IMG/VR virus record: IMGVR_UViG_3300032007_000010
Reading direction: 5' to 3' (one strand)
Length of the DNA: 64,000 bases
From: a virus
Lineage: Duplodnaviria; Caudoviricetes
In this document: positions 18,661 through 49,079 of the stretch, in pieces
How positions within the stretch are numbered: position 1 is the stretch's first letter
Layout: every line of letters starts with the position of its first letter
Notes under the pieces: model-generated
Databases searched by the model: none
The model's input: only the letters and a program-made list of their open reading frames with translations
Told to the model about the DNA's origin: nothing
Position numbers and translations under genes: made by a program

Positions 18661-20022
18661 ATGAATAATCTCACAAAACGCAAGTATCGTTTTACCTACG
18701 GCTATGCCTTTCCCGAGAAACATCCGGAGTGCCCTGATTTCGAGGGTGAGTACTACGTACAGCTCAGCGACACCGACGTGATCGAAGAGGGCGAAACTCC
18801 CAACGAAGCAGGTTTCCTCGTCGTGGCCATGGACCGCTTCGTCGAAGAGCGTAATACCATGGAGCTCAACGAGACTGAGGAGTATGAGCTTCACAGCATC
18901 ACAATCGTTCCCATCACCAGAACGGTTAAGGATCCCAGCGATGTATTGAAAGCACTCATGGATGATTACGTCAATGAGGCGGATTCCATGACTGATCTGA
19001 TCCTCTGCTGGCTCGATGAGGATGAGTCTCATACCCTCACCGACGAGGAGATCCAAACCCTGATCGAGTTTGCCGGGGATGAGAACTATGTGACGGTGGA
19101 AGACATTCGACACATGTCGACGCATGACCCAATGTGCAATGTCGAACCTTACAAGAATGCACAGGCCATGTTTGACGTCATGAAAGAACTCGACGTTGGC
19201 AGCGATCATTTCACCGAGAGACTCAAATATGTTGATAGGCGCATCGAGATTGACACCGAATGTCTCAACACCGCCTGCGGCAATAAAGAAACCAGTCGTT
19301 ATCTGCACCGCATCAATCAGCTTAAGAAATATAAGAAGATGCTCAACATGATTGCGTTCATCGATCGTGTGGAGTCTTCGGATTTGAACGAACGGCTCAT
19401 CATGCTCCGGCTGATCGCGGAACAATTCGGTGTACCGATAATCACGGCTGAACAGGGGAATGAATCTGCAGCCCCTGGTGCATATGGTTCCGGCAAGGTT
19501 GATGGTGTGATTGCCATGGGCGAAACCGTCACATTCGACGGCATCGAATGGATCGTGGTCAATGTGGACAAGGATAGATACACCCTCATGAAGAAGACGA
19601 TCGACAAGATCTCCGCGTTCGGACTCTCCACAAATTATCGCGGTTCGTACATTGCTGATAGATGCGAAGAGTTTCAGGCCCACATGAGCAATGCTGCACT
19701 TTCGATGATCAGCGATAAAACTGTCCAGGGGGTCACTGCCAAGGTATGGATCGCCACCAAGTCCATGATCGAAGAATGGACGGATTCCGACAATCCCACC
19801 AACAACATGTATGGTAGTGTGCGTGTGTGGGATTTCCAAGATACGACGATCGATGCTAAGAAAAACGGTTCCTACTGGTGCCCCGATCCGTCCGACTCCA
19901 ACTATGTCTGGTACGTTAATTGTGGCGGCTACTTCCTCAACTACATTCCGAGCGATGCGCGTGGGTTCCGCCCCTGCATCGAAGTTATTGGGAGGGGCGA
20001 GCATGTATCCAATGTCACCTGA
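18661..20022 (+). CDS. Fusion protein with C-terminal DGR-target-type (C-type-lectin-like) domain
   Basis: C-terminal ~165 aa paralogous to 25229/25957 (FDGIEWIV...YTLMKK...AKVWIATK...YWC...GFRPCIEV); gaggag RBS before 18661. Confidence 0.8.
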   Translation: MNNLTKRKYRFTYGYAFPEKHPECPDFEGEYYVQLSDTDVIEEGETPNEAGFLVVAMDRFVEERNTMELNETEEYELHSITIVPITRTVKDPSDVLKALMDDYVNEADSMTDLILCWLDEDESHTLTDEEIQTLIEFAGDENYVTVEDIRHMSTHDPMCNVEPYKNAQAMFDVMKELDVGSDHFTERLKYVDRRIEIDTECLNTACGNKETSRYLHRINQLKKYKKMLNMIAFIDRVESSDLNERLIMLRLIAEQFGVPIITAEQGNESAAPGAYGSGKVDGVIAMGETVTFDGIEWIVVNVDKDRYTLMKKTIDKISAFGLSTNYRGSYIADRCEEFQAHMSNAALSMISDKTVQGVTAKVWIATKSMIEEWTDSDNPTNNMYGSVRVWDFQDTTIDAKKNGSYWCPDPSDSNYVWYVNCGGYFLNYIPSDARGFRPCIEVIGRGEHVSNVT

Positions 20023-20671
20023 TCAGGAGAATAATATTCAGGCGATGCGGAATTACTGGAATACGCATCCGGAGATTCGAGGCATCAACCCTGTGACTTT
20101 CTGGTTGCACATGTACTATGCATATGCGATGCAGACGTTCATTCCGGGAGTTTCCAAGAATCCGATGTATATCGTATCCGAAGTCAAGCTCATCGAGGAT
20201 ATCGTCGACTATCGATCCAGGACCGAGGAGAACATCACCGATATTGACCAAAAGGCGCAGTTGATCAAGGACTTCATCGATCGCGTGGATGAATACATTA
20301 GATTACACCATTCGGACGTGGTTGACGCCCTCGAGGTTATCGCCGAGAATCCGGACTATCTATCCGCAGTGATCTTCGTGAACGATGGTAGCTTTCGCAC
20401 CAATCGCATTATCCTGTCAGAGGCTGAGTTCGCGTATTGTGCCATCGAAAGGAACGGGGAATGCGTCCTCATCAACACCATCACGCACAATCAAGCTGAA
20501 CCTGCGATAAAACATATCATCGAGGAAGATGGTGTGATATTCGTGCAACTTGTGCCCAAAGCGTACACGGAAAGGATTCTCAGATATAACCGTTTGATGA
20601 GTCAGATCGGCCACTATGGCAGCGAACCATCATACCGTCGCATCGGTCCGTTACCTTCGATCTGGTTCTGA
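20003..20671 (+). CDS. Hypothetical protein
   Basis: MYPMSPDQ... ORF overlapping the upstream gene end. Confidence 0.65.
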   Translation: MYPMSPDQENNIQAMRNYWNTHPEIRGINPVTFWLHMYYAYAMQTFIPGVSKNPMYIVSEVKLIEDIVDYRSRTEENITDIDQKAQLIKDFIDRVDEYIRLHHSDVVDALEVIAENPDYLSAVIFVNDGSFRTNRIILSEAEFAYCAIERNGECVLINTITHNQAEPAIKHIIEEDGVIFVQLVPKAYTERILRYNRLMSQIGHYGSEPSYRRIGPLPSIWF

Positions 20672-20762
20672 GGAATCAAAGAAACCGCTTCCTTCGTGGG
20701 GCGGTTTCTTTTTGCTCGAACATCCATATATAATAGACATCCCCGAGAAAGGAGACATTCTC

Positions 20763-22094: not shown

Positions 22095-22178
22095 ATTGCT
22101 TCCTGTTTTCTTTGTGATCGAATTTGAATTTCATCGAACATTAGTATACTTAATGCTTCGGGAAAGGAGGAGGATATC

Positions 22179-22505
22179 ATGGGTCTATTTGATAAGCTCA
22201 GAGCACGCAGCGAGCAGCGCAGGACAGCACAGCTCGAGGCCGAGCACGCATCCGTGGAGCAGCGTCTCCGCGATGAACTCTTTGCCATGTCGATCGAAGA
22301 ACCTGAAAAACGCACGGTTGAATTCAAGAATCGTCGCTATGTGCTCGAGATCACCAAGACCGGCGAGCGCAAGTTCAGCGTGCACGAACCCTTCGAAAAC
22401 AACGGCAAGAAAATGTGGAGATACAACACCGTGATCTACACGGCGGCCGGCGAACAGGGCAGTGCTAGGACGGGAGTCTATCCGGCCTCCTTTGCGAATA
22501 GGTGA
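22179..22505 (+). CDS. Hypothetical protein
   Basis: aggaggagg RBS; AACAttagtaTA motif at 22137. Confidence 0.75.
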   Translation: MGLFDKLRARSEQRRTAQLEAEHASVEQRLRDELFAMSIEEPEKRTVEFKNRRYVLEITKTGERKFSVHEPFENNGKKMWRYNTVIYTAAGEQGSARTGVYPASFANR

Positions 22506-22507
22506 TC

Positions 22508-22541
22508 AAAATCCCCTCCCCAACCATCGGGAGGGGATTTT
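22508..22541 (+). terminator. CCCCTCCC hairpin family copy 4
   Basis: aaaatcccctccc...gggaggggatttt. Confidence 0.75.
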
Positions 22542-22583
22542 ACTTTGGTCTATATAATATAACCTTGAAGTAACAAACGAAAG

Positions 22584-22997: not shown

Positions 22998-23000
22998 CAC

Positions 23001-23822: not shown

Positions 23823-23835
23823 GATACCATCAAAT

Positions 23836-23870
23836 ACCCCTCCCGGTGATCCGGGAGGGGTTTCTTTTTC
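23836..23870 (+). terminator. CCCCTCCC hairpin family copy 5
   Basis: acccctcccgg-tgat-ccgggaggggt plus T tract. Confidence 0.75.
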
Positions 23871-25225: not shown

Positions 25226-25228
25226 TCC

Positions 25229-25894
25229 ATGGGAACAATCTATGGTGATGCACTCAAATCTGGAGGGAAGTTCGACTTCAGTGGAGCGAATGTAACAGTG
25301 GATGATTTGCCAATCGGTGTATATGCTTGGGATGCTAATGGTACACTGATAGGACGGGAAGCAGATCCTGGTGAATACGGCTCCAATGTCATCTCCGGAA
25401 CTCTTACCAAAGGTTCATATGTACGTTTTGATGGCATCGACTGGATCGTTGCGAATGTCTCCGGCAACACCTACACCCTGATGCTGAAGAAGATGACCGA
25501 GACCACAACCTTCGGTTCGTCGACCAGCTATAGTGGCAGTACCATCACGTCGAAGTGCACGACCTTCCAGAATGCGATGTCGGCGAATGCGCTGTCGGTG
25601 GTCAACTCGAAGACGGTACAGTCGGTTACAGCGGAGGTGTGGATCGCTACGAGATCCGACATCGAATCCTGGACCGATAGCAACGACCAGACCAGTTCTG
25701 CCTGGTCTGGCATTCGCAAGTGGACGGGCTCGTCCGAGGATGACTATGCCGTGAAAGACATCTATAGCTACTGGTGCTCTGATCCGGACGGCTCCGGCCG
25801 TGTCTGGGCCGTCGCTTACATCGGCCTCTTCGTCAACGACAACGGTCCGAGCTATGCGCGTGGGTTCCGCCCTTGTATCGAAGTTGTACAATGA
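25229..25894 (+). CDS. DGR-target-type receptor-binding domain protein
   Basis: CLec-like C-terminus ending GFRPCIEV; VR-like NNC/NNT codon pattern at 25781-25885. Confidence 0.8.
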   Translation: MGTIYGDALKSGGKFDFSGANVTVDDLPIGVYAWDANGTLIGREADPGEYGSNVISGTLTKGSYVRFDGIDWIVANVSGNTYTLMLKKMTETTTFGSSTSYSGSTITSKCTTFQNAMSANALSVVNSKTVQSVTAEVWIATRSDIESWTDSNDQTSSAWSGIRKWTGSSEDDYAVKDIYSYWCSDPDGSGRVWAVAYIGLFVNDNGPSYARGFRPCIEVVQ

Positions 25895-25956: not shown

Positions 25957-26670
25957 TTGATTCAGAATCAACCAAATCCCAATACCATATCAGAGCTCCA
26001 GGCTGAGATCAACTACTGGAAAAGGCGGTATGAGGAGAAAACTTTTGACTTTTCTGGGGCCACCGCAACACCGGACGATATTCTCCAGGGGGTTAAGGCT
26101 TGGGATGCCACCGGCACACTGATCACTGGCACTTATGTGTTTCCTGGTGAATATGGTTCTCCCGAGATTGCTGGTACTCTCACAAAGGGCTCATACGTCA
26201 GGTTCGATGGGTTGGATTGGATTATCGCCAAGGTGAACGGTTCCACCTACACACTCATGCTGAAGAAGATGACGGAGACGACGCAGTTTGGCTCGTCGAT
26301 CTACTACAGTGGTTCGACAATCGCATCCAAGTGCACGACCTTCCAGGGTACCATGTCTGCCGAGGCGCTGTCGGTCGTCAACTCCAAGACCGTACAATCT
26401 GTCACGGCCAAAGTGTGGATTGCCCAGAAGACCGACATCGAATCCTGGACTGTCAGCAGCGAACCGTCTTCGTCAGATTGGTCTGGTATTCGCAAATGGA
26501 CCGCCAACGATGGCATCTACGATTCGGTCGGAGCTACCAACTACTGGTGCTCGAATACGAACGACTCCAGTTATGTCTGGATCGTCACTTCCGACGGCTA
26601 CTTCTACGGCCGCAATAGTCCGAGTAAGACGTATGGTTTCCGACCCTGCATCGAAGTCACTCAATCCTGA
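25957..26670 (+). CDS. DGR-target-type receptor-binding domain protein
   Basis: Paralog of 25229; TTG start with aaaggagg RBS. Confidence 0.8.
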   Translation: MIQNQPNPNTISELQAEINYWKRRYEEKTFDFSGATATPDDILQGVKAWDATGTLITGTYVFPGEYGSPEIAGTLTKGSYVRFDGLDWIIAKVNGSTYTLMLKKMTETTQFGSSIYYSGSTIASKCTTFQGTMSAEALSVVNSKTVQSVTAKVWIAQKTDIESWTVSSEPSSSDWSGIRKWTANDGIYDSVGATNYWCSNTNDSSYVWIVTSDGYFYGRNSPSKTYGFRPCIEVTQS

Positions 26671-26749: not shown

Positions 26750-28075
26750 ATGGGAATCGTATCGGGCTTCGGAGCAAATCCCGGCATCGGAGCCGTGATT
26801 GATCTTAGGAAGAAGGTTGAACTCTGCCCGAGCATCATCGTGAATGTGCCCACCGGCAGCACGGTATCCTGCACGAAGGGTACGATCAGTCTCACCGCAC
26901 TGTCCATCGATGTTGGAGCGGAGACGGATACCCATACCTTCCAACCCACCGAGGAGGGAACCTGGACGCTGAGAGCCACGCTCGGTGAGGACGAGAGTGA
27001 AACCGAGGTGTTGGTCGAGAAGACCAACTACGAAGAGGATCTCGAATACTTCACCAATCCCATCGAGGGAAATGTTGTGCCCGGTCAGGTTGTCACCTTT
27101 GACAACAAGAGCTGGATTGTCCAGCACGTGGATGGAAACATTGCCTATTTGGCATCCAACGGGATTCTGTCCACGGGTGCGTTCAACAGCAACAGCAGAA
27201 ACGCGTACCTTGGCTCGGATCTAGCAGCCAAAGCTGCTGACTACCAAACAAACAACATGAGTGCCAAAGCGCTCAAATATTGTCAGGATGTTACCGTCAA
27301 CGGAGTTACCAGCAAGGTCTTCATTCCCTCTAAAGCTCAGTATGAATCCGAATGGAGCTGGCCGTCTGCCTCGGCGGACAACCGCAAGCAGACCGGCGGC
27401 AACAGCTGGTATTGGACCTCTTCGCCGTATCCCAACGACTCCAGCAATGTGTGGTTCGTGGATGGCAACTTCAACAGCATCATCGCCAACTATGCCGATG
27501 GCGGTTTCCGGCCCGCGGTGGCCGTGAAGTTCCGCAAGGAGATCGGAGACGGTGAATATGGTTCTTCCAAGATCGCCGGCACTCTGGAGAAGGGTCAATT
27601 CGTCAAATTTGATGGGCAGGATTGGATCGTTGCCAATGTATCTGGTTCAACCTATACGTTGATGTTGAAGAAGATGACGGAGACCACTGCATTTGGATCC
27701 AGCACAACATACTCTGGCAGCACCATCGCATCCAAGTGCACGACCTTCCAGAACGCGATGTCGGCCAATGCACTGTCAGTGGTCAACTCGAAGACGGTCC
27801 AGAGCTTCACCGCCAAGGTATGGATTGCAACAAAATCCGACATCGAATCCTGGACCGATACTGCTAATCCGACCAGTTCTGCCTGGTCTGGTATCAGAAA
27901 ATGGTCTGGAACCACTGAAGATGACTATGCCGTGTCGGGTATCTATACCTATTGGTGCTCTGATCTGGACGGTTCCAGCTTTGTCTGGGAGGCCGAGAAT
28001 CAAGGTAATTTCGGCAGCAGCGCTCCGGCTGCTGTGTTTGGCTTCCGTCCCTGTATCGAAGTCACCCAAAGCTAA
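26750..28075 (+). CDS. Tandem two-domain DGR-target protein with an internal TR-matched VR
   Basis: Domain 1 ends GGFRPAVAVKF (paralog of the 47565 gene); domain 2 ends GFRPCIEV (paralog of 25229). Confidence 0.85.
   Translation: MGIVSGFGANPGIGAVIDLRKKVELCPSIIVNVPTGSTVSCTKGTISLTALSIDVGAETDTHTFQPTEEGTWTLRATLGEDESETEVLVEKTNYEEDLEYFTNPIEGNVVPGQVVTFDNKSWIVQHVDGNIAYLASNGILSTGAFNSNSRNAYLGSDLAAKAADYQTNNMSAKALKYCQDVTVNGVTSKVFIPSKAQYESEWSWPSASADNRKQTGGNSWYWTSSPYPNDSSNVWFVDGNFNSIIANYADGGFRPAVAVKFRKEIGDGEYGSSKIAGTLEKGQFVKFDGQDWIVANVSGSTYTLMLKKMTETTAFGSSTTYSGSTIASKCTTFQNAMSANALSVVNSKTVQSFTAKVWIATKSDIESWTDTANPTSSAWSGIRKWSGTTEDDYAVSGIYTYWCSDLDGSSFVWEAENQGNFGSSAPAAVFGFRPCIEVTQS
27421..27515 (+). repeat. 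DGR variable repeat VR2 (remote, internal)
   Basis: Matches the reverse complement of TR 46493-46593 with 11 substitutions, all at TR adenines, plus an in-frame 6-nt deletion. Confidence 0.9.
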
Positions 28076-28093: not shown

Positions 28094-29146
28094 ATGGCGT
28101 TTCTGTCTCTCGGTGTTCTCAATCGGAACAAACCAAACATCAGGGATGTCCTCCTGCACAAACCCTCAACATCGTCCCAGCTCGTATATACCGGGGAGTC
28201 GCTCTCCCCGGTCTGGGACAACTATGATCCGGACAAACTCACCATCTCCGGGGATCTCTCCGGGATCAACGCTGGTACCTATACCACGACATTCACTCCG
28301 AAGCTCGGAGTATTCTGGGAGGATGGGACAAGTAACCCGTACAATGTTGGCTGGAGCATCGGCAAGGCCACACCCACCGCAAGCATCGACAAGAGTACCG
28401 TGACCCTGGATGCGAGCAAGACCTCCGACACAATCACGGTGACCACGAATTCGGATGGTGCGGTCAGTGCAAGCAGTGACAACACCGGAGTTGCCACGAC
28501 CAGCGTATCCGGAAAGGTTGTGACCGTTTCTTCGGTCAACGATACCACCGGCAGCGCCAATGTCAGCATCGGTGTCGGTGCCGGAAATAATTACATCGCC
28601 TATCCGAGCGTCATGAGCGTGGCGGTCACCACCAGCTTCTTTGTCAATCCGCTCAACAAGGATACCATGACACTTGGGGATGAAACCGTTTACTTCACCG
28701 CCTATCCGTCCATTACCTGGCAGGTACAGCATCTGGATGGGAATTATGCCTATCTGGCGTTGTATCCGATAACTGAACGGAGTGTATTTGGTTCCAGTAC
28801 AACCTATTCCGGATCCACCATTGCACAGAAGTGCACAGACTATCTGAATAACACCATACCCAATGTTGCTGACTATCTGGAAGAGGTCACTGTGAACGGT
28901 GTCACTGCTAAGGTCTTCATTCCTTCTAAAGCTATGTATCAGACCGAGTGGAATTGGCCGAAGACCAGCGCTTCCAATCGTAGTTGCATGATAAACGGTG
29001 CCTATATAGCATATTGTACATCTACTGCGGCCGACTCCGGCAGTGTGTGGAGCGTGAGTGGCGATGGCAACTTCTACAGCGGCTACGGCCCGTCGGCTGC
29101 GTTCGGCTTCCGTCCAGCGGTTAAAGTTAAATATAAAGCTTTGTAA
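28094..29146 (+). CDS. Ig-like repeat plus DGR-target-type domain protein
   Basis: Shares YTG...P.W.NYD..KLTISGD and Ig-like segments with the 47565 gene; ends GFRPAVKVKY. Confidence 0.8.
   Translation: MAFLSLGVLNRNKPNIRDVLLHKPSTSSQLVYTGESLSPVWDNYDPDKLTISGDLSGINAGTYTTTFTPKLGVFWEDGTSNPYNVGWSIGKATPTASIDKSTVTLDASKTSDTITVTTNSDGAVSASSDNTGVATTSVSGKVVTVSSVNDTTGSANVSIGVGAGNNYIAYPSVMSVAVTTSFFVNPLNKDTMTLGDETVYFTAYPSITWQVQHLDGNYAYLALYPITERSVFGSSTTYSGSTIAQKCTDYLNNTIPNVADYLEEVTVNGVTAKVFIPSKAMYQTEWNWPKTSASNRSCMINGAYIAYCTSTAADSGSVWSVSGDGNFYSGYGPSAAFGFRPAVKVKYKAL
29030..29086 (+). repeat. Partial VR: 57-nt core differing from TR only at adenines
   Basis: gcc gac tcc ggc agt gtg tgg agc gtg agt ggc gat ggc aac ttc tac agc ggc tac versus TR aac aac tcc aac aat gtg tgg aac gtg aat aac gat ggc aac ttc aac aac aac aac; flanks differ at non-A sites. 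Confidence 0.7.
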
Positions 29147-29487
29147 AGATGATGCTTGTGTGTTTACTCATATATCAATCATTCACGATGTAATTATCAG
29201 CTGAATTTGTCCCAGGGGCCATCATAGTGCTCCTGGGACACGTTTTTGTACAACGGCTATCCATTCTCAATGTTCTCGGCTTTGTCACTGTTCTGGCACC
29301 AAAGAAAGAGATCGGTGATGAGCTGATATATGGATGAGGATGATCCCGGACGTTGTGATATGCTGGAAAAGATGCGTCGCAACATTAAATACAATAACTT
29401 TCATCCGATCAGCAGTCACTATCCGGACTGCTACTATCTTTTGCCACATGCGGCATGCTGGAACATGGACTAGCAACGATTCAAACG

Positions 29488-29836: not shown

Positions 29837-32119
29837 TCACATGATGAGTCCAATGAGCGATTCCATTTCAGCACTCACAGACTCGTTGGTGGTCTTTTCC
29901 TGGGATTCGATGAATTTCTCGAGCTCCTCCATGGCCGAGAGCTGCTGCTTCTCGATCTCGGCAAGCTTCTTGGCGATGCTCTCGCAGGCTCTGGAGGATT
30001 GACGTTCGATCTCGGTCAGAGTGTTCACCGAGGATTTGGTGGTGTTCGCGTCCTCGATGATGATCTGATTGAGTTCCACAGAATCCTTGGTTTTGTCGGA
30101 GGAAACATTTTTGTGTCTCTCGAACCATTCCTTGATGCTCTTGATCATGTTTCTGACAATTTCGATGAATCGAGCGAATAGCTTTCTCAGGAAATCGATC
30201 GCCTTCTTGACAGCAGTTTTCACATGACTCCAGAGGGTTGCAACCGTGATTGCCTCCAGCAAGGTTCCCTCGTCGAGCACAGGAACATCGAATTCGTCAT
30301 CCGTCGACTGTGCAAAGTACCATGCCTCGCCGAGCATCTCGGCCGCCTCGTTTAGGTAGCTCTCGGCCGAAGCGTATAGATCAACATCCATCGCATCCTC
30401 GACGATGAGCGAATTCCTGGCATAGTGAACCTTCACACCTTTGATCTTCTTGAACTTCGGATCCAGATTCATATGACCCGGATTGCACATCGAGAGATAG
30501 ATGTTCTTTGAACCATGATCGATTAGACTCTGGAGCAGTTCATTCACATCGGTGAAGGTACCATGTTCGGTGGAAATCGGCTGGCAAGTCCAGACCATAT
30601 CACGATTGGCACGTCGAATCAATTCATTGCCAGCGCGAGCTCCACGATTTGTGATCTTCGACTGATCTGCGATCTCATCCTTGTACTTTTGATAATCAGT
30701 CCAGAGTTTGTGAGCATTCTTCTTATCGGAATCGGTCAGATCATTGTCTGGATAATGTTTGTCAAAATCAACAACATATTTGATTATCTGCCATGAGCAG
30801 TAGGGATTATCGATTGGATCAAGTTCCTTTTCAAAAAACTTATCAAGCGACTTGTTTTGGTTCTGATAGTTGCGCAGAGCCTTCTTCTGCATATCCAATA
30901 TTTTCTTATCAGAATCGGAGGGTTCACCTTTGCTCTCTACTCGTTTGATGGCAGATTCAAGGCCGTCGATCATGTCGTCGTTGGATATGTGTAGATACTC
31001 GAGTGCACTGTTTAGTTCATATGCACCATGCTCGAACGCATCGAAATAATCCTTCACCTTTCGTTTCGAATCAAGCAGATCGATCTCGGTTTTATGCTTA
31101 ATGCGTCTCATTTCTCTGTTGGTCGTATTGGCATCCTTGTATTTGTAGCTACCATGACATGAAACAACGGTATCGTACTCGATGCAATGCTGAATAATAC
31201 GATCGATGGTTTCGGTATGCTCAAAACCCGTTTTCCCCTTGGTTACGTAGAATTTTCCCGCTCCGAGCTTGGAGAAGTCGTAACCGTAGCTCGTCTTGAA
31301 GCTCTTCTCATTGTCCTTGAGGGCATCCTTGATATTCTTCACCGAAAGCGCTCGTACCTGATCATCATTGGACTCGAGTCCACGCATGAGCACCAGTGCC
31401 TCGGCTTCGGTGTATCCGAGTAGCTCATGATTCATGGAAAGCATTGCTCGGAGCGCCGCACAGATCATGTCACAATAGTCGATGCGGCTTTGGATCATGC
31501 GATGAACTTTCTTTGGATCAGTCTCCTTTGTTCCATACCCAACCGAGAGAATCAATTCGCTTGCAAGATTGTCCCAATCACTACGATACTCGGCGTTTTC
31601 TCCGGTATATTCAGCAAAGCGTTCTGCAAAGGTTTTGATCGAAGAGCACATGCGTTCAAAGACGAGCAGGTTATTATTACGCTGAAGCAGTTCTTTGGTA
31701 TCATAGATGCCGGCTCTAACCTTGGTGTTGCGAGAATTTTCTAGGTACTGGTCGATCTTGTTGTACTTGTCGGTTAGTTCATCAAGATGAGCACTCGCCA
31801 TCGCATTGTAAGCACCAACAATGTTCTCGGAGAGCAGGATCGCTTCGTCGCGTTCCTTGTGATAGTCCTCGATGGCGATGTGAATCATGTCATCCAGCAC
31901 ACCACCGTGAACAAAATCGGCTTTTTCCAGATGATCCGGATGTGCAATGTTTGTTCCATTCCACTCGGCACGGAGGCGCTCTTCGTTCCATCCTTTATGT
32001 TCGGCCGCAGCAACCAGTCTCTCACGCAGCGCCTCTGGAATCATGTCGTAGGATACGAAGGTTGTGGCACCGTGAGTCTCTGTGACCTCGAGCAATGCTA
32101 CCTGGGTCTCTCTGAGCAT
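29837..32119 (-). CDS. Putative clan CD (caspase-fold)-like cysteine protease, paralog 3, probably virion-associated
   Basis: DTVVSCHG...WTCQP...DVNEL...NIYLSMCNPG; C-terminal amphipathic module shared with its paralogs. Confidence 0.55.
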   Translation of the reverse strand: MLRETQVALLEVTETHGATTFVSYDMIPEALRERLVAAAEHKGWNEERLRAEWNGTNIAHPDHLEKADFVHGGVLDDMIHIAIEDYHKERDEAILLSENIVGAYNAMASAHLDELTDKYNKIDQYLENSRNTKVRAGIYDTKELLQRNNNLLVFERMCSSIKTFAERFAEYTGENAEYRSDWDNLASELILSVGYGTKETDPKKVHRMIQSRIDYCDMICAALRAMLSMNHELLGYTEAEALVLMRGLESNDDQVRALSVKNIKDALKDNEKSFKTSYGYDFSKLGAGKFYVTKGKTGFEHTETIDRIIQHCIEYDTVVSCHGSYKYKDANTTNREMRRIKHKTEIDLLDSKRKVKDYFDAFEHGAYELNSALEYLHISNDDMIDGLESAIKRVESKGEPSDSDKKILDMQKKALRNYQNQNKSLDKFFEKELDPIDNPYCSWQIIKYVVDFDKHYPDNDLTDSDKKNAHKLWTDYQKYKDEIADQSKITNRGARAGNELIRRANRDMVWTCQPISTEHGTFTDVNELLQSLIDHGSKNIYLSMCNPGHMNLDPKFKKIKGVKVHYARNSLIVEDAMDVDLYASAESYLNEAAEMLGEAWYFAQSTDDEFDVPVLDEGTLLEAITVATLWSHVKTAVKKAIDFLRKLFARFIEIVRNMIKSIKEWFERHKNVSSDKTKDSVELNQIIIEDANTTKSSVNTLTEIERQSSRACESIAKKLAEIEKQQLSAMEELEKFIESQEKTTNESVSAEMESLIGLIM

Positions 32120-32121
32120 GA

Positions 32122-32442
32122 TTAACCAACCCCTTTCTTGGTGTTATTCTGAAAGCCAATCTTGCCCTTACAACTCGAGGTTGGCATAAATACCACCGAG
32201 GTGCTGATGATCGAGTAATCTGCTGGTCGAATGAAAAGCGTTCTTGGCACCTGTTTTCCGTGTGCTGGAAGATCAATTTGAAACATATGATCTTGATCTT
32301 CGATTGCTTTGGTCAGCTCTCCATCTAACCAAGCCTTGATCTCGAGGGCTTCCTTGCGACTACGGCATTTGCGGGTCATGTCGATTGCTTTATCATAGCG
32401 CTTGTTCTCAGCGGCAATACCCACCGCATAGTATCCTTTCAT
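32122..32442 (-). CDS. Hypothetical protein
   Basis: ggaggtg RBS, in operon. Confidence 0.7.
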   Translation of the reverse strand: MKGYYAVGIAAENKRYDKAIDMTRKCRSRKEALEIKAWLDGELTKAIEDQDHMFQIDLPAHGKQVPRTLFIRPADYSIISTSVVFMPTSSCKGKIGFQNNTKKGVG

Positions 32443-32457
32443 GCTAACACCTCCGGA

Positions 32458-34758: not shown

Positions 34759-34775
34759 TCCTTTGTCTGTTTATT

Positions 34776-34790
34776 CATTATAGAAATGTC
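34776..34790 (-). promoter_or_regulatory. Putative late-type promoter
   Basis: GACAtttctaTAATG on the minus strand. Confidence 0.6.
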
Positions 34791-34836
34791 CCAGAATATC
34801 AGGATCCCCGGAATTGACCGGGGATCCTGTCGTGGC

Positions 34837-37800
34837 TCATCTGCAACGTTTGCTGCGCCAATCCTCGAATTTGGGCGTGCTGTATTCGAAAATGCTGGGT
34901 TCACTGTCGTGGCTATAGTACCACACCTTTTTCGACCTGAGTGAGAAGAGGAAGTGATCACCGTTGCCCACCGCACCGAGCGGGATGAGCTGATATTTAT
35001 CAAACTCCTTCTCCTCTTCCTCGGTGTCGGCGCCATAGAATCTCTTTGTGAGTTCGGGGGTACCGTAGATCATGCGGCCGAGGGTTGCGATATCGGAGGT
35101 GCTGAGACCCTCAAACTTCCCATCATAGGTATCTTCACAGAAGTATGAAATGACAGCCTTGGGAGTCACTTTGATCTTGGTGTCACCATTTGGGCCGTTA
35201 ATGAAATCGGGGCATTTCTCGAGAATCTTGGTTGCTTTGGCCTCATCGAACGTACCAAGCGCAGCCTCGTTCAGCCAGCCGCTCATGAGCTCTTCGGCGG
35301 ACTCGTTCTGTGCCTCTGGATTTGCCTTGGCGTAGAGATCCTCGGCCACATCCTTCGGAAGGTATCCGACGATGTTGACGAGGTTCGGCTCCTTGGTCGT
35401 GGTTTCGACCTTGAACGGAACATTGCGCGAACGGAGCCAGGATTGGGTCGTGGTCGCGGCCTTCTTGGCGAGCGCCTCGACGCGCTTGTTGATCTCTTCG
35501 TCGCCACGATTCTGCACGTAAACATAGCCAAGATCGACACCCCATGCCTTCTTGCCTTTGTATTCGTCGGTGGGGCCATAGTATACCACGAAGTCGGTGC
35601 CGATTTCGATGCCATCTTCCTTGTCCTTTTCGCCGAGGAGGGTCTTGAGCTTCTCATCGAGCTCATCTTCGCCGGTCATGTAGTTGTCGGCGATCCAGCC
35701 GCGAATCTTCTTGTTGAGCTTCCGTTCCGCACGATTCTCCTTGACCTTCGCGAGCACCGCCTCGCCGAGCGCAGCATAGTCCTCGGAGGATGCACACTCG
35801 TTCTGAATCTTGGTCAGCGCGGCGTTGAGGTCCTTGAGCGAATCCATGCAGCGCTTCTCGAGGGTTTGGATCTGCTCGCCGATGCTTTCGCAGGACCTGA
35901 CCATGGAGGACTCGAGTTCGCTCCAGCTCGTCACGGCCTTCTCCTCAAACTTGGCCTTGTCTCCATCCACAGCGATGGCGGGATTCGGGACACCGTCGGC
36001 CAGCTTGTCCTCGACGGTCTTGCCCTTCTTCACGTCCTTGAAGAAGCCGTGAATCTTGTCGATCATCCGACGGAACTTCTCGATGCCCCGCTTGAAGAGG
36101 TTGGAGAACTTCACCGCTGTGAGCTTGATGATGTTCTTGATCTTTGCCCAGAGGTCGGAGACCCCCTCGTCGATGATCTCGTCGCCCAGCGCAATCGCGG
36201 CCTCGTTGAGCGATTCGACCTCGTGGTAGGAGAATCCAAGCTCCTCGCAGGCCTCCATGAGATGGAGCTCGGTCTCGTTCATGATGTCATAGCAGTGGGA
36301 GAATTCACTGATCTCGTCGGCGCCGTAGGTACCCTCGGCGAGGAGGCTGTTGGTGGCAACCTTGAAGGTCACATCCTTCATCTCCCTGAGGTCCTTGTCC
36401 AATTCATGATGACCCGGGTTGCAGGACATGATGCAGATGTTCTTGAAACCTTCGCGCGCGAGCTGGCGACAAATCTCATTGACATCGGTGAGCGCTCCGG
36501 AGGATTTCTCGGTGCGCACGGGCTGGCAGTACCATACCTTCTTGCCGGAGAAGAGTCCGTTTTCGATGCGGGCGTATTGATACCAGGCACGCTGATATCT
36601 TCCGGCCACGCTCTGGATCTTCTTCTTGGCATCGGCGATCTCCTGGTTGAGATCGGCAACCTGCTTCTTGTACTCTTCCATGTTCTTGGCACCAACGAGA
36701 CCATTCATATCGGTGATGAGTCGATCAACGACCTGGATGGCCTGGGCCAGATCCACGTTTGCCTGGTCGAGTTGCTTGCGCAGCGTTTCAATCTCCTTGG
36801 CATCGGTCTGGGCGGGATCGAGTCTGTCGAGCTGCGCCGCAATCTTGTCACGCACGGCCTTGAGCTTGAGCGCTTCCTTCTTGGCGGAGTCAATCTTTTT
36901 GCCGAACTCCTCGCGGATCTTCTTGACCTCGGGCGATTCGTCACGTTTGATGTTGCGCATGATGCGCGCCTTCTCGTCCTCGAGCTTTTCGATCTTGGAG
37001 ATGAGGTCTTCTACCTTCTTGGTGATGGGATGAAGCACTTCGTTGTTATACTTCATACCCTTCCTGGTCTGAGAACCACCATGGGCGAGCACCGTGGCAT
37101 CATGGTTGAGGCAGACACCGAGAATATGATCGATGGCAGTAAAGACATCCAGACCCATCTTGTCGGTGGTGTAGAAGAGCACACCGCCGCCCACGGAACG
37201 GAAATCAAACATGCCGTCACGGGGCTGGAACTTCTTCTTGTTCTGGATGATGAGCTGCTTGACCTGTCGGATCGACGCGGTGCGTTCCTTCTCGTTGCCA
37301 TTCTTTATGGATACCGAGAGCATCTTTGCCTGGTCCTTGGTGATGCCAAGCATCGCGTAGTTCATGTCGAGCATGGTGCTCAGGGTTCCGACCATGGCCT
37401 CGTACATGGCGAGGCGTGCCTTGAGGATGGCCTTGATCTCCTCGGGATCATTGCTAGGCTGATAGACACAGTTGATGACCATCTGACGAATCTCCGCCTC
37501 GGTGAGACGAATCTCCATGCCGGCGCCATGCGTCTTGTCAACGGCGCCCTGCATATCCAGCACCATTCTGAGCGCATTGAGCACGGGCTGGAGACCGGCC
37601 TCGGCGATGGCGCGCTGCGCATCTTCATTGGACATGTTTTTGAGGCAGGCCATGACAAAGTCGATGGCCTTCTGGGCCTGACCCTGGAGCATCGCATTGT
37701 AGGCCTTCACAATGTTCTCGGCATTGAGGACCGCCTCATCCTGTTCTTTCTTATACTGATCCATGGCACGAACGAGCACCGTATTGATGGCATCGCCCTC

Positions 37801-38022
37801 CTGGAGCGAAGACCTGTCCTGGGTCGCCCAGCGTGTGCCGTTGATATAGTTGATGATCATGGCCATGGGATAACCATTCTTGGAGGCCCACTCCTGGAGC
37901 TCACGCTTGACGCGGGGAGGGAGATCCTTGTAGGATACGTGCAGCTCACGCATCTTGTTCACCGCCTCATCGAGCAGCGGCGTTGCCAGCCCAATGTGGC
38001 AAAGTTCAACACTCTGCATCAT
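34837..38022 (-). CDS. Putative clan CD-like cysteine protease, paralog 1, with extra C-terminal domains (last one SMI1/KNR4-like)
   Basis: DATVLAHG...WYCQP...DVNEI...NICIMSCNPG; terminal LIPLGAVGNGDHFLFS...VWYYSHD resembles SMI1/KNR4. Confidence 0.55.
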   Translation of the reverse strand: MMQSVELCHIGLATPLLDEAVNKMRELHVSYKDLPPRVKRELQEWASKNGYPMAMIINYINGTRWATQDRSSLQEGDAINTVLVRAMDQYKKEQDEAVLNAENIVKAYNAMLQGQAQKAIDFVMACLKNMSNEDAQRAIAEAGLQPVLNALRMVLDMQGAVDKTHGAGMEIRLTEAEIRQMVINCVYQPSNDPEEIKAILKARLAMYEAMVGTLSTMLDMNYAMLGITKDQAKMLSVSIKNGNEKERTASIRQVKQLIIQNKKKFQPRDGMFDFRSVGGGVLFYTTDKMGLDVFTAIDHILGVCLNHDATVLAHGGSQTRKGMKYNNEVLHPITKKVEDLISKIEKLEDEKARIMRNIKRDESPEVKKIREEFGKKIDSAKKEALKLKAVRDKIAAQLDRLDPAQTDAKEIETLRKQLDQANVDLAQAIQVVDRLITDMNGLVGAKNMEEYKKQVADLNQEIADAKKKIQSVAGRYQRAWYQYARIENGLFSGKKVWYCQPVRTEKSSGALTDVNEICRQLAREGFKNICIMSCNPGHHELDKDLREMKDVTFKVATNSLLAEGTYGADEISEFSHCYDIMNETELHLMEACEELGFSYHEVESLNEAAIALGDEIIDEGVSDLWAKIKNIIKLTAVKFSNLFKRGIEKFRRMIDKIHGFFKDVKKGKTVEDKLADGVPNPAIAVDGDKAKFEEKAVTSWSELESSMVRSCESIGEQIQTLEKRCMDSLKDLNAALTKIQNECASSEDYAALGEAVLAKVKENRAERKLNKKIRGWIADNYMTGEDELDEKLKTLLGEKDKEDGIEIGTDFVVYYGPTDEYKGKKAWGVDLGYVYVQNRGDEEINKRVEALAKKAATTTQSWLRSRNVPFKVETTTKEPNLVNIVGYLPKDVAEDLYAKANPEAQNESAEELMSGWLNEAALGTFDEAKATKILEKCPDFINGPNGDTKIKVTPKAVISYFCEDTYDGKFEGLSTSDIATLGRMIYGTPELTKRFYGADTEEEEKEFDKYQLIPLGAVGNGDHFLFSLRSKKVWYYSHDSEPSIFEYSTPKFEDWRSKRCR

Positions 38023-42245: not shown

Positions 42246-42274
42246 GATTGGAAAGAAAGGATGGACCATAAAAC

Positions 42275-44041: not shown

Positions 44042-44052
44042 TCCGAGCATGG

Positions 44053-44666: not shown

Positions 44667-44674
44667 AGAAAACT

Positions 44675-44702
44675 ATCCCCTCCCAATTCGGGAGGGGATT
44701 TT
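44675..44702 (+). terminator. CCCCTCCC hairpin family copy 6
   Basis: atcccctccc-aattc-gggaggggat followed by ttt. Confidence 0.7.
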
Positions 44703-44804
44703 GTTGTGTCAAGATCAGTACCCGTCGATGGTACAAAATAATCAGAATTCAGAAGATAAAATATCACAGGGGCCTTTATTGTGCCCCTGTGATAATGTTT
44801 TGTA

Positions 44805-46217
44805 TCAATATGTAGTAAAATCGGTAAACGAAATTCTGGAATGTTCAGTACTTTTGCCTCGTTTATGAGATTTCTCATGCTTATTCTTATCCTGATAATT
44901 TCGGCTTATCGGTGGTAGCGGAAGATATCTATCGTCATCCACAACCATATCCAGATTTTCAAACTTAGCAATATCTCGCTCCATATGAACCCCAGCCCAT
45001 CGCATCTTCCTCTTTGATTTAATTGTGTTATAGAACCTATCCCCATATAGAGACCCATCTTTCTTCTTTGGTCGTTTTCGCAATATGATAAAGCCGTTAC
45101 TATCGAAATCTGTATCTTCCAGTGTGGTTCTATACTCAGCCATGGTTCTTGGTTCGAACTCTTTTCCTCCAAGCATATGCATGGTTTTCTCGTATAAATT
45201 CTTAGATTTTTCAGTTTCGCCGCGTTTTGCATGACCGTGCCATGATTCTAGCGAATCTATCGCAGCGCTGCGCTCAATGATTCCATCTTCAACCATAGCA
45301 ACATGCTTGGTGAGTTTGCGTTTTTCGTTACGTACTTTGCCAGGAAGTACTGTCATATCAACATTATGGGTACGTAGGTTGTATCTAAAATTGAACCCAA
45401 TGAATCGAATACCTTCTGCATAAGGATGGATCTGACTCTTCGGATTGAGCTCAAGATCAAGTTTCTCTTCAACGTATCTTTTGATTTCTTTGTAGCAATG
45501 CTTCAAATACTCTTTGTCCTTATGAATAAGATAAAAATCATCCATATAACGACCATAATATTTTATCTGAAGCTTCTCTTTGATAAAGTGATCGAGTCCA
45601 TTTAGATAATAGACTGCGAGCCATTGTGACGTCTGGAACCCGATGCATAGACCGCGGGTCGACCCATCAAAATCTTCGATTGCGTATATGAGAGTATGCA
45701 TGAGGTCCTGTAATTTTTTATCTATTGGTAGCTTTCGAATCATCTTCATGCAGATCTCACGATTGATTTCATAGAAAAAATGATGGATGTCGCAAGATAG
45801 TACGAACCCATTGTTGGTGTATCCCATCTCGGCAGAAAATGCATTCATGTTATGTCTAATACGCTCCTCCGCAAGTGCACTGCCTTTTCCTTCTTGTGTT
45901 GCATAGTTGTCGTATATTAGCATTGGTTGTATGGCAGGTTCTAGGACATGTTTGCACATGAGTCGTTGAACTATTTTATCTTCAAACTGATTTGCGGTTA
46001 TCTCTCGCTTCTTCGGTTCGTATATGATAAATGAGTATAGATCAGTGATACGATAGGTTCCTTTTATGAGGCGAGTATATAATTTATTGATATTTTTGGT
46101 CAGATCTAGGTGAAATTTAACAACCTCATTGCGAGTGGTCTTTCCTTGTCGACAATGGTAGTATGCTCGCAGAAGATTTTCATAGGTAACCACATCTTCA
46201 TATCTTATAACCTTCAT
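44805..46217 (-). CDS. DGR reverse transcriptase with C-terminal extension
   Basis: IYEPKKREI, DKIVQR, CDIHHFF, GLCIGFQTSQ, YGRYMDDF, LELNPK and FIGF motifs; likely start ATG 46217 (MKVIRYE). Confidence 0.95.
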   Translation of the reverse strand: MKVIRYEDVVTYENLLRAYYHCRQGKTTRNEVVKFHLDLTKNINKLYTRLIKGTYRITDLYSFIIYEPKKREITANQFEDKIVQRLMCKHVLEPAIQPMLIYDNYATQEGKGSALAEERIRHNMNAFSAEMGYTNNGFVLSCDIHHFFYEINREICMKMIRKLPIDKKLQDLMHTLIYAIEDFDGSTRGLCIGFQTSQWLAVYYLNGLDHFIKEKLQIKYYGRYMDDFYLIHKDKEYLKHCYKEIKRYVEEKLDLELNPKSQIHPYAEGIRFIGFNFRYNLRTHNVDMTVLPGKVRNEKRKLTKHVAMVEDGIIERSAAIDSLESWHGHAKRGETEKSKNLYEKTMHMLGGKEFEPRTMAEYRTTLEDTDFDSNGFIILRKRPKKKDGSLYGDRFYNTIKSKRKMRWAGVHMERDIAKFENLDMVVDDDRYLPLPPISRNYQDKNKHEKSHKRGKSTEHSRISFTDFTTY

Positions 46218-46492
46218 CTCTTGGCCTCTTAACTTTGATCTAAACGACAGTATAAACCCACCACCATACGGTGGTGTTGATCTCATCCACGTACCAGAAT
46301 CGGTGCTATTTCAACCGAGTCGGGCATATGAATGAGCGCGGGTACGTTTCTCCATTGAAGCATAGTAGAGCCTCTCCGGACAGGATACAATCTCCTTGCA
46401 CCTACGATATGCGTTCGACTGATCCAATGTGAGATCAGTTTACTAGATCGATCGCTGCTGCACGTCTATAAGACATGCAACATAGGCACAAT

Positions 46493-46593
46493 CGGGCCGG
46501 AAACCGCCATTGGTATTGTTGGCGTTGTTGTTGTTGAAGTTGCCATCGTTATTCACGTTCCACACATTGTTGGAGTTGTTGGGATTCGGCGAA
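46493..46593 (-). ncRNA. DGR template repeat (TR)
   Basis: Non-coding, AAC/AAT-rich (reads SPNPNNSNNVWNVNNDGNFNNNNANNTNGGFRP); matches two VRs except at adenines. Confidence 0.95.
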
Positions 46594-46630
46594 CTTTACT
46601 CACGTAGACCGTAACCTAATATACATATGT

Positions 46631-46666
46631 TCCCAACAACTCCTATTGGCCCGATTGTGTCTATGT
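46631..46666 (-). other. TR-leader segments antisense to both TR ends
   Basis: 46631-46643 is the exact reverse complement of 46572-46584; 46648-46666 is the reverse complement of 46480-46498 at 18/19 positions. Confidence 0.85.
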
Positions 46667-46702
46667 GAGACAACGCATTGTGTGTGATATAAATAAACAG
46701 CG

Positions 46703-47275
46703 TCATGCAGTGAATTTATCCTTTTCGTCATCAGAGTTGTTTGCTCGTTTTATCAAAACGACAAACCCATCACTATCCCTATATTTTTCCAACTCATTCC
46801 ACTGACGTTTAATCTGACCTCTCACCCAACGCTCATGTGCTCTGATAACGTATTCCTTTCTGCTTGGCAATTTACGCTTTTTGTTGTATGCATTCTTCTT
46901 TGTATATCCAAATGCCGTTTCAACCTTAGTCATCAATTCTGCCAACTCTTTCGTGTTGTTCAAATTGGTAATTCGTGTTGATAGTTGAATAAGCGATAAT
47001 AGACGATGATAATGATCTTGTGCTTTTTCAAAATGTTTTAGCTGTTTCTTCGCAGTCTTTTTGTGCTTGGGACTCATCGCAAGAGCAGTGTTTAGTTCTG
47101 CGCAAAATTCTTCGCATTCAGATAAGATTTTATCCGTTACAACAAATCGATAGCGTTTTGGTACATATTTTTCATTATTATAGACCGTAGCCAGATATTT
47201 GAATAAGTTTTCTGAATGAATGGCCACCGCATAGGGTTCACCCTTGCCCTTGGTTTTATATTTCGGCCTTGACAT
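46703..47275 (-). CDS. avd: DGR accessory variability determinant (Avd-like) with C-terminal extension
   Basis: Basic helical protein with PKRYRF...KI motif, directly upstream of TR and RT. Confidence 0.8.
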   Translation of the reverse strand: MSRPKYKTKGKGEPYAVAIHSENLFKYLATVYNNEKYVPKRYRFVVTDKILSECEEFCAELNTALAMSPKHKKTAKKQLKHFEKAQDHYHRLLSLIQLSTRITNLNNTKELAELMTKVETAFGYTKKNAYNKKRKLPSRKEYVIRAHERWVRGQIKRQWNELEKYRDSDGFVVLIKRANNSDDEKDKFTA

Positions 47276-47328
47276 AGAGCATATTCCCCCAAATATATAA
47301 TCAGCATCGCGGCCTTCGGCCGTGTTGG

Positions 47329-47342
47329 CTTATAATTGTGTC
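47329..47342 (-). promoter_or_regulatory. Putative late-type promoter driving avd-TR-RT
   Basis: GACAcaattaTAAG on the minus strand, ~55 nt upstream of avd. Confidence 0.55.
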
Positions 47343-47374
47343 TTTATATTTCAAAAATGATATAAAAATTTGAT

Positions 47375-47404
47375 GCTCCCGGGGTGATACAACACCCCGG
47401 GAGC
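47375..47404. terminator. Strong hairpin between target gene and avd promoter
   Basis: gctcccggggtg-atacaa-caccccgggagc. Confidence 0.65.
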
Positions 47405-47564
47405 AATCATGTCTGGAATCAAATAACTGGTTGCATGTATGGTCGTGGGACATAATTGTTCTCGACTACGCTTCGCTCATAACCCTGCCAATGGGCGGGT
47501 TATGGTCGGAACAAAATATGCCCACTATTGAACCTGTGTTCAAATACATGCAACAATACATCTA

Positions 47565-49079
47565 TCACGCCTGGAACTGTACTTTAACTGCGGGCCGGAA
47601 ACCGCCATTGGTATCGTTGGCGCTGAAGTAGCTGCCGAAGCTGCCATCGTAACGCACGCCCCACACAACGCTGGAGTTGCCGGGATCCGGCGTAGAGGTC
47701 CAGTACCAGCTGTTGCCGCCGGTCTGCTTGCGGTTGTCCGCAGACGCTTTTGGCCAATCCCAATCAGACTCGTACTGTGCCTTAGACGGGATGAAAACCT
47801 TGCTGGTACCACCATTGACCGTCACAGACTGGCAGTACGACATAGCTTCGCTACCGAGCGTCGTCTCATAGTTAGCGCAGGTTGTCTTGAGGATATCGGA
47901 ATTCGCGTAAACATTGCTGTTAGACGACGCAAATGCTCCGGTAGAAACGATACCATTCGACGCCAGATATGCATATTTACCGTCAACATGCTGGACGATC
48001 CAGCTCTTGCCCGCAAAGGTGACCGTAGAACCAGCAGATACCGTGCCACTGATCGGATTCACGAAGAAGCTGGCGGTGACCGAGCACGTCTTGCTTGCAG
48101 CGGTGTAGTTACCGCCGCTGGCTGTCACTGTGATCGTGGCAGTACCAGTTGTATCGTTCACGCTGCTCACCGTCACCGTGGAACCGCTGCGGCTCACTGT
48201 GACCACGCTGGTATTGTCGGAGCTGACGCTCAGCGTACCATCGTAGTTGCCGCTGATGGTGAAGGTGGTGGACTTGGTGGTGCTGTTCAGCGTGATGCTG
48301 GTCTTGCTGAGCGACATGGTGTTGGCCGCCTTGCTGATGGTGACAGTGCACTTCTTCGCCGCCGCAACCGCGGTCCAGTTTCCGTTGGTCGCATCAGCAT
48401 CCACGCGGCAATAGATGTCGTAGGAACCGGCATTGATCGCGCTGGGCAGGCTGCTGACATAGGCGCTGGAAGCCGGTGCGGAAGAACCGGCCGTGACCGC
48501 CGCGTAGAGCAGCGTACCAAAGGTGGTGGAGCCGGCATTGACCAGGGTCTGCGAAGATCCTGTGTAGGTGAGGGTCTTCGCCGTGGGAGCCGTGATGGTC
48601 GGGGTCGCCGGATTGAGCGTCCAGGTCTTGTAGACGATGCGACGATCCAGCGTGGATGCCCAGACGTATCCCTTCTTGGGTGTGAAGCCCACGGTGTAGG
48701 TACCCTGGTTGGTGGCGCTGGTGTCGCCGGAGATGGTGAGCTTGGTGGAATCGTAGTTGTTCCAGCTCGGGCTCCGGCTGGAGCCGTTGTAGGTCGGATT
48801 GCTCGCCACGGACGGCTCGACATCGATCTCCTCATTGGCAGCGGAGGTCGCCACCTCGTATGGGAGGTTGTTGATGCCAATGAAGACCTTGCTGGTACCC
48901 ACCAGGATCTTGCCCGAAGCGAGGGTCTCGGGGGCATCGTCGGTGACCTGCACCTCGGGCAGACTACCCTCAACCGTGGTGCCGTCCGGGCGCAGCACCA
49001 GGCTGCTGTCCGTCTCGAAGTGCACCGTATCATAGCTCGAGCCGTTGTAGCGATGCAGCCTCTGTTTCAGAGTTGCCAT
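47565..49079 (-). CDS. DGR target: tail-fibre/receptor-binding protein with Ig-like repeats and C-terminal CLec-like domain
   Basis: Start MATLKQRLHRYNG after ggagg RBS; VR at the 3' end. Confidence 0.9.
   Translation of the reverse strand: MATLKQRLHRYNGSSYDTVHFETDSSLVLRPDGTTVEGSLPEVQVTDDAPETLASGKILVGTSKVFIGINNLPYEVATSAANEEIDVEPSVASNPTYNGSSRSPSWNNYDSTKLTISGDTSATNQGTYTVGFTPKKGYVWASTLDRRIVYKTWTLNPATPTITAPTAKTLTYTGSSQTLVNAGSTTFGTLLYAAVTAGSSAPASSAYVSSLPSAINAGSYDIYCRVDADATNGNWTAVAAAKKCTVTISKAANTMSLSKTSITLNSTTKSTTFTISGNYDGTLSVSSDNTSVVTVSRSGSTVTVSSVNDTTGTATITVTASGGNYTAASKTCSVTASFFVNPISGTVSAGSTVTFAGKSWIVQHVDGKYAYLASNGIVSTGAFASSNSNVYANSDILKTTCANYETTLGSEAMSYCQSVTVNGGTSKVFIPSKAQYESDWDWPKASADNRKQTGGNSWYWTSTPDPGNSSVVWGVRYDGSFGSYFSANDTNGGFRPAVKVQFQA
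47591..47692 (-). repeat. DGR variable repeat VR1
   Basis: About 18-19 substitutions versus TR, all at adenines, plus one extra NNC codon in the AAC run. Confidence 0.95.

Follow-up and report, generated by a model that had tools for sequence, protein, structure and literature searches.

Diversity-generating retroelements (DGRs) are very common in gut phages. The DGR of phage BPP-1 is arranged as mtd-avd-TR-brt, where TR is the template repeat, and the same gene order is found in the DGR described here, which is located in a 64-kb stretch (hereafter the window; IMG/VR record IMGVR_UViG_3300032007_000010, Duplodnaviria, Caudoviricetes) of a phage genome of approximately 288 kb. About 105 kb of this genome was read in total. 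The likeness to BPP-1 extends to a reverse transcriptase (RT) whose closest solved relative is the Bordetella enzyme (8ub7), to adenine-only differences between the TR and the variable repeats (VRs), to the location of the VR at the C-terminal end of a domain with a predicted C-type lectin (CLec) fold, and to a GC-rich 3′ element common to TR and VR. In contrast to BPP-1, the second target of this DGR is located away from the cassette, in inverted orientation and inside its gene, and the VRs differ in length from the TR. Moreover, the 190-amino acid accessory protein is barely Avd-like, the RT carries a C-terminal extension of about 110 amino acids, the genome is about 288 kb, and no obvious hairpin follows the VR.

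Several of these departures have precedents. Wu et al. 2018 (NAR 46:11, PMC5758913) found multiple targets in 15% of DGRs and non-adjacent targets in 45 of 372, within 50 kb in phage-associated DGRs. Their survey also includes internal VRs, as well as TR/VR length differences in 7% of DGRs, 74% of which adjoin AAC and were attributed to RT slippage. Systems such as Treponema denticola TvpA and its paralogs therefore resemble the present locus in their multiple or non-adjacent targets, internal VR and TR/VR insertions or deletions (indels), and the indels seen here are accordingly a known feature. In all these respects, which are already documented, the locus is a further example. Unlike the surveyed systems, only two of its eight paralogous domains match the TR, and the rest form a decayed VR array in an apparent tail-fiber cluster.

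A second point of comparison is DUF6273 (PF19789), a CLec-like DGR target domain of gut phages known from tentaclins (PMC10743442) and Faecalibacterium prophages (PMC11792537), where two targets are served by one TR. DUF6273-type targets of gut Firmicutes phages share with our locus the use of one TR for two targets, a hypervariable beta-hairpin at the C-terminal end of the domain, immunoglobulin (Ig)-like domains, and the existence of some small single-domain targets. They differ in that the Pfam scores for the window domains fall below the gathering threshold (20.4 bits for gene 26750 and 16.8 bits for gene 47565 versus 23.5 bits), that the domain is C-terminal here and N-terminal in tentaclins, and that the carrier is a jumbo phage. 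The class-B proteins defined below give no Pfam match to DUF6273. Thus, the window domains are best treated as distant relatives of this family.

The initial annotation of the window listed seven domains that end in GFRP[A/C], distributed over six genes, and all were found at the listed places. These genes, named here by their first coordinate, are 18661, 25229, 25957, 26750 (with two domains), 28094 and 47565. Class-A domains (ending GGFRPAV) are present in gene 47565 and as the first domain of gene 26750, a class-A′ domain (PS..FGFRPAVKV) is present in gene 28094, and class-B domains (GFRPCIEV) are present in genes 18661, 25229 and 25957 and as the second domain of gene 26750. We consider it very probable that the phage carries one canonical DGR whose live targets are VR1 in gene 47565 and VR2 in gene 26750, and that the other lectin tips are fossil VRs that are exchanged as modules.

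Two targets of one template repeat

The DGR cassette is carried on the minus strand in the order target gene, Avd-like gene, TR and RT gene. The TR (46493-46593, minus strand) is 101 nucleotides (nt) long and has 34 adenines in a 99-nt core, mostly in AAC or AAT codons. It is the single AAC-rich TR-like segment of the window, and it aligns to both VR1 and VR2. VR1 (47591-47694, minus strand; 104 nt) resides in the adjacent target gene (47565-49079, minus strand), which codes for a 504-amino acid protein with an N-terminal module shared with other genes, Ig-like repeats and a C-terminal class-A CLec domain (the open reading frame translation matches protein P0032, 504 amino acids). Relative to the TR, VR1 carries 18 substitutions and has gained an additional NNC codon within the (AAC)4 tract. 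VR2 (27421-27515, plus strand) is a remote target, located 19 kb from the cassette on the opposite strand and internal to gene 26750 (26750-28075, plus strand). The 441-amino acid product of this gene has two CLec domains joined in frame, a class-A domain that carries VR2 and a class-B domain after it. VR2 carries 11 substitutions and a 6-nt in-frame deletion (AATAAC).

Every mismatch to the TR falls on a TR adenine, both in VR1 (18/18; hypergeometric P 9e-11) and in VR2 (11/11; hypergeometric P 9e-7). The two VRs differ from one another at 17 of 30 adenine sites and at none of 63 other sites, whereas the scaffolds of the domains that carry them are only about 79% identical, and both were therefore written from this TR. 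The initial annotation had reported two domains matching the TR with adenine-only substitutions, which is correct, but it did not mention that VR1 is 3 nt longer and VR2 6 nt shorter than the TR, both in frame.

The TR and both VRs have exactly the same 16-nt GC-rich element at the 3′ end, and the flanking sequences diverge directly after it. Exact copies of this element are found at these three sites of the window and nowhere else in it. It might serve as a recognition signal like the initiation of mutagenic homing (IMH) element. Overall, the data support a genuine DGR with more than one target, including a remote target on the opposite strand.

In the mechanism that we propose, the TR would be transcribed and then copied into complementary DNA (cDNA) by the RT acting with the Avd-like protein, with misincorporation opposite adenines. 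The cDNA would replace a genomic segment that bears the matching 3′ recognition element, for which VR1 and VR2 both qualify. Each would thus be rewritten from the same TR, re-randomizing two lectin-fold tips at as many as 34 adenines, most of them in AAY codons. Slippage in AAC tracts might occasionally add or remove whole codons and would be a source of the indels. The extra codon of VR1 conforms to NNC and is not a copy of its neighbor.

In-frame VR/TR indels that are at or next to AAC or AAT recur in this DGR lineage. In addition to VR1 (+3) and VR2 (−6), they are present at positions 12395-12510 of contig L007 (−6, at another site) and at positions 369-450 of contig L009 (+3), where the added 3 nt lie within an AAC run.

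Turnover of the targets between close relatives

Protein searches uncovered another phage, from sample ERZ27274630, with a backbone identity to the window of 95-98%. Between the two phages, VR1 differs at 21 of 34 adenine sites and at 1 of 65 other sites. Differences in the target gene are concentrated accordingly: a 120-nt stretch that includes VR1 has about 21 of them, compared with about 2 for every 60 nt of flanking sequence. For VR2, the numbers are 17 of 30 adenine sites and 5 of 63 other sites, the latter mostly at a 5′ indel. The VR2 of the relative has also lost 6 nt, at another site than the VR2 of the window. Both VRs are therefore hypervariable among close relatives, as is typical for DGRs.

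The lone difference at a G site probably reflects an A in the TR of the relative. One contig of the relative ends 75 nt before the TR, and a 1.8-kb contig that carries the RT gene begins with the final 6 nt of the TR. The assembly thus breaks on both sides of the TR, as a collapsed repeat would be expected to cause.

A very different picture is seen for the VR-like segment of gene 18661, which has only 6 differences in 115 nt versus the relative, all of them transitions and 5 at third codon positions. This change is background drift of the synonymous type, at the level of the rest of the gene, and there is no excess variation in the segment. The expectation in the initial annotation that adenine-specific variation would extend beyond VR1 is thus borne out by VR2, but not by gene 18661. 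Considered together, the sequence comparisons support a model in which the DGR was active after the split from the relative, with both VR1 and VR2 having turned over.

The reverse transcriptase, accessory gene and TR-RT spacer

The RT gene (44805-46217, minus strand) codes for 470 amino acids. Its open frame reaches 46286, and the likely start (MKVIRY) at 46217 is chosen because a 99% identical gene call in the relative is 470 amino acids long. The open frame at 44805-46286 matches RVT_1 at 6e-14 and the RT family PHROG 1423 at 3.5e-91, and among solved structures its best relative is 8ub7 at 1.4e-28. Its IGFQTSQ sequence aligns to IGSLTSQ of 8ub7 and its YMDD to YMDD, such that it conforms to the motif-4 pattern [ILV]GxxxSQ and to the YxDD pattern of DGR RTs.

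The C-terminus of the RT (44805-45200) forms a basic extension of about 110 amino acids past the region that aligns to the Bordetella RT (bRT; 328 amino acids). RT relatives in other jumbo phages are 435 amino acids long. Directly past the RT stop codon is a hairpin followed by a run of T nucleotides (44764-44804), and a second such element (29210-29250) is found at the end of the lectin-tip array. The two are 76% identical to each other and look like one terminator type.

The non-coding spacer between TR and RT gene (46218-46492, minus strand) is 99% conserved in contig L022 of the relative. A strong hairpin is predicted directly 3′ of the TR (DNA fold of 46400-46505, minus strand: −18.5 kcal/mol, z −2.9), and the spacer is presumably part of the DGR RNA.

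The accessory gene (46703-47275, minus strand; 190 amino acids), located between target gene and TR, is a more difficult case. Its product gave no Pfam match (up to E 10), no PDB profile match and no convincing NCBIfam match. The model NF033474 (DivGenRetAVD) scored 1.6e-4 with a homolog in contig L001 and 0.11 with the window copy, both far below cutoff. The leads from an ESM Atlas search are clusters of Bordetella Avd (bAvd) and of four-helix bundles, with bAvd at 0.85 and TM-scores of 0.5-0.6. In three other jumbo-phage contigs (L001-L003), a gene of 32% identity occupies the syntenic position, and each of these contigs repeats the order target, accessory gene, TR and RT and has its own adenine-type TR/VR pair. 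All parts of the cassette that the initial annotation had named (an RT with YMDD, Avd and a 101-nt AAC-rich TR) are in place, and the Avd label reflects weak matches.

A megablast search with the cassette against 50,697 GenBank phages gave no match. Because RT relatives are present on many contigs of 200-330 kb, the DGR lineage appears to be common in large gut or rumen phages, which are otherwise almost unannotated.

Predicted fold of the target domains

AlphaFold (AF2) models were obtained for the 221-amino acid class-B protein of gene 25229 (predicted local distance difference test score, pLDDT, 83.6; predicted TM-score, pTM, 0.80) and for the VR1 domain (pLDDT 82.2, pTM 0.82). In structure comparisons by VIA-align, the best match for both models (Z values are given as class B/VR1 domain) was the T. 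ramosa IgA peptidase's N-terminal domain (9qa6; Z 12.9/11.8), followed by BACOVA_04982 (4eps; Z 8.8/7.1) and then by the C-terminal domain of Legionella Lcl. The DGR variable protein TvpA (2y3c) was matched at Z 7.1/6.3 and Mtd (1yu0) at Z 5.8 by the class-B model only, values of a size that chance arrangements can also produce. Next in both rankings come dozens of C-type lectin domains (CTLDs), many with Z 5-6.5. A Foldseek search against PDB gave no match below 1e-3, and C-type lectins dominate its weak list. These models predict that both domain classes adopt a C-type lectin fold with the VR on C-terminal strands, in agreement with the CLec-type domains proposed in the initial annotation (pLDDT 82-84).

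Orphan VR-like segments

The remaining five domains of the window carry orphan VR-like segments, and a sixth orphan is located about 150 kb away. Gene 18661 (18661-20022, plus strand) has a class-B CLec domain with a segment at about 19872-19974, whose mismatches to the TR number 17-19 outside adenines and 19-20 at adenines. Gene 25229 (25229-25894, plus strand; 221 amino acids) consists of an N-terminus of about 45 amino acids and a class-B CLec domain, and its segment (about 25768-25873) has 21-25 non-adenine mismatches. Gene 25957 (25957-26670, plus strand; 237 amino acids) also encodes a class-B CLec domain, with a segment at about 26541-26646. The segment in the second, class-B domain of gene 26750 (27949-28051, plus strand) has 26-31 non-adenine mismatches and includes GAG and CAA codons that misfit NNY. 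Lastly, gene 28094 (28094-29146, plus strand; 350 amino acids) has a class-A′ CLec domain, Ig-like repeats common to the VR1 target, and a segment at about 29012-29116.

Identity to the TR is 53-64% among the five, and each segment has 17-31 non-adenine mismatches, about as many as adenine ones. Their 3′ elements each have 5-6 mismatches in 16 nt (5 in genes 18661 and 28094; 6 in gene 25229 and in the second domain of gene 26750). Adenine-only differences from the only TR in the window and identity of the 3′ element, the hallmarks of a current target, are therefore both lacking. The proposal in the initial annotation that the seven tips are separately diversified is supported for VR1 and VR2 but not for the five others, given their non-adenine mismatches, their 3′ elements and their differences at third codon positions.

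The class-B paralogs (five copies) nevertheless retain an unusual codon pattern. Pairwise differences at the first, second and third codon positions are 0.29/0.27/0.52 in the scaffold versus 0.46/0.43/0.20 in the VR-like segment. Moreover, 88 of 102 variable class-B codons end in C or T, versus 58% in the scaffold. This pattern points to an NNY trace of AAY templates, and thus to orphans that are probably fossil VRs from past DGR writing.

A reading of the orphans that does not involve a DGR is that their tips were never targets and are ordinary paralogs whose binding loops have diverged under positive selection. Receptor-binding loops commonly show excess non-synonymous change, and no TR that matches the orphans is at hand. 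However, a preponderance of codons ending in C or T is given by AAY templates and is unexpected from selection alone. The orphan segments also align collinearly to TRs, both the resident one and those of related cassettes, and homologous domains are true VRs elsewhere. A scan of JGI metagenomes with the class-B alignment recovered relatives of 28-45% identity, none with a class-B TR, along with a class-A′ cassette on contig L009 whose VR is genuine (14/14 mismatches at adenines). We therefore hold it very improbable that the orphans have no history as DGR targets.

It is similarly improbable that all seven (or eight) domains are live targets, with additional TRs (one or several) elsewhere in the genome that would serve the orphans, perhaps together with a second RT. 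This model would account for the DGR-type codon signature, and the closer agreement of third positions in the segment (0.20) than in the scaffold (0.52) suggests templating after the paralogs diverged. The segment of gene 28094 is matched better by a foreign TR type than by the resident one (21 adenine and 8 other mismatches to the TR of the unrelated cassette L009 versus 25 and 16). About 180 kb of the genome is outside the part that was read. Yet the class-B segments are unlike one another at third codon positions, which are non-variable, and in the 3′ element. For this reason one shared TR is not writing the class-B copies now, and each copy would need a TR of its own. The segment of gene 18661 has drifted in a synonymous-type manner while VR1 and VR2 turned over. 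Also, none of the best 120 RT relatives listed is on a contig as long as this genome.

Searches for a second TR gave none in the 64-kb window and none in the 20 kb around the eighth paralog. The latter, a class-B copy of 284 amino acids (contig L005, 10001-10855), is in the same genome about 150 kb away and has an orphan VR-like segment; the 10 kb of sequence to each side of it lacks a TR. Scans of IMG/VR that used gene 26750 or the alignment of class-B domains as query also found nothing.

The reading that we favor is that the orphans would have been written earlier by a DGR, using an ancestor of the present TR or other TR lineages. The better match of the gene 28094 segment to the TR of L009 suggests that tips from other DGR lineages have been imported by recombination. 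They would then have lost the recognition element and become tips of fixed specificity.

Weighing the evidence for an active DGR

A number of points weigh against an active DGR with two live targets and a set of fossil ones. The length mismatch of both VRs with the TR could mean that neither has been rewritten since its indel arose. A fold search 3′ of the VR revealed no BPP-1-type hairpin after VR1; the hairpin search at VR1 and VR2 recovered just a 5-bp GGCC stem at VR2, with z about 0. Support for 46703-47275 as Avd is weak, with E 0.11 for the copy in the window. The part of the approximately 288-kb genome that was read is about 105 kb, and a second TR may be present elsewhere. The comparison with the relative indicates activity since the split, and ongoing activity in this population is presumptive. 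VR1, VR2 and the orphan proteins are identical in three near-identical assemblies of the genome (287,721, 287,669 and 287,660 nt), which for this reason say nothing on activity. Among the five orphans of the window, just one (gene 18661) has an ortholog in the relative with which it can be compared. Finally, Pfam and PHROG are uninformative for most genes of the array, and there is no direct match that indicates a virion role.

The indels and the invariance of the three assemblies might be taken to mean that the DGR is a recently dead relic, in which the writing of VR1 and VR2 is over, as their 3-nt gain and 6-nt loss relative to the TR would show. We judge this very improbable. RT, accessory gene and TR each remain intact, conservation of the RT reaches 99% in the relative, and both VRs have turned over after about 3% backbone divergence. 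In addition, an extra VR1 codon of the form NNC that does not copy its neighbor fits an origin in templated synthesis, and indels recur in the VR2 of the relative and in L009. An active DGR that accommodates occasional in-frame indels is therefore the model that we retain.

Exchange of lectin tips

The N-termini encoded by genes 25229 and 25957 are 90-95% conserved in the relative, where they are joined to class-A′ domains instead of class-B domains. Related phages thus exchange lectin tips on conserved N-termini. The relative's ortholog of gene 26750 ends right after the first domain (263 amino acids), and therefore the 441-amino acid form in the window is a fusion with a class-B module that has made VR2 internal. 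The relative has an extra class-A domain as well, which has 85% scaffold identity to the VR1 domain and a VR-like segment that no longer matches the TR. In our model, related phages would trade such tips as modular units carried on conserved N-terminal anchors.

The N-terminal module of the VR1 target gene is also present in genes 23900 and 49488, and the latter has weak PHROG matches to minor tail proteins. A gene for a tail lysozyme is close by. An ESM Atlas search with the N-terminus of the target yielded only leads, with TM-scores below 0.5. From this context, a virion role for these proteins in receptor binding, as parts of tail fibers, might be proposed.

The eight paralogous lectin domains of this one genome constitute a natural experiment, in which rewriting is confined to the two with an intact 16-nt 3′ element and the six that lack it evolve normally. 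This makes the rule for target recognition testable, and the locus an internally controlled example of DGR target choice. It also implies that DGR products can persist after the DGR has ceased to write them, as receptor-binding tips of fixed specificity that jumbo phages exchange with each other. One could speculate, with considerable reservation, that the phage has a two-tier system for host range. The DGR would continuously re-randomize two tips, and useful products would be frozen by loss of the recognition element to form a standing library that recombination shuffles among conserved N-termini and among related jumbo phages. If so, a frozen tip could be re-armed by recombination that restores the 16-nt element.

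Neighboring genes

Two genes flank the DGR region. The gene at 51938-54322 codes for a 794-amino acid protein with CHAP, tail-lysozyme and peptidoglycan-binding domains. The gene at 54946-56889 has an ortholog in the relative that resembles polyphosphate kinase (PP_kinase and PLDc domains). Between the two DGR targets, the minus strand at 29837-38022 carries three large tandem paralogs (760, 766 and 1061 amino acids) that share several families of 40-105-nt repeats. These proteins have just weak tape-measure-like PHROG matches and no Pfam match.

An AT-rich HNH endonuclease gene (15873-16883; PHROG 374, 6.7e-55) is absent in the 96-98% identical relative. The interval 15770-16880 is a presence/absence insertion polymorphism, because contig L007 joins 15769 to 16881 with a 39-nt overlap. 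Near the start of the window (358-6459) is a gene for a 2033-amino acid protein in which PHROG matches indicate phosphoesterase, DNA helicase and acetyltransferase-like regions.

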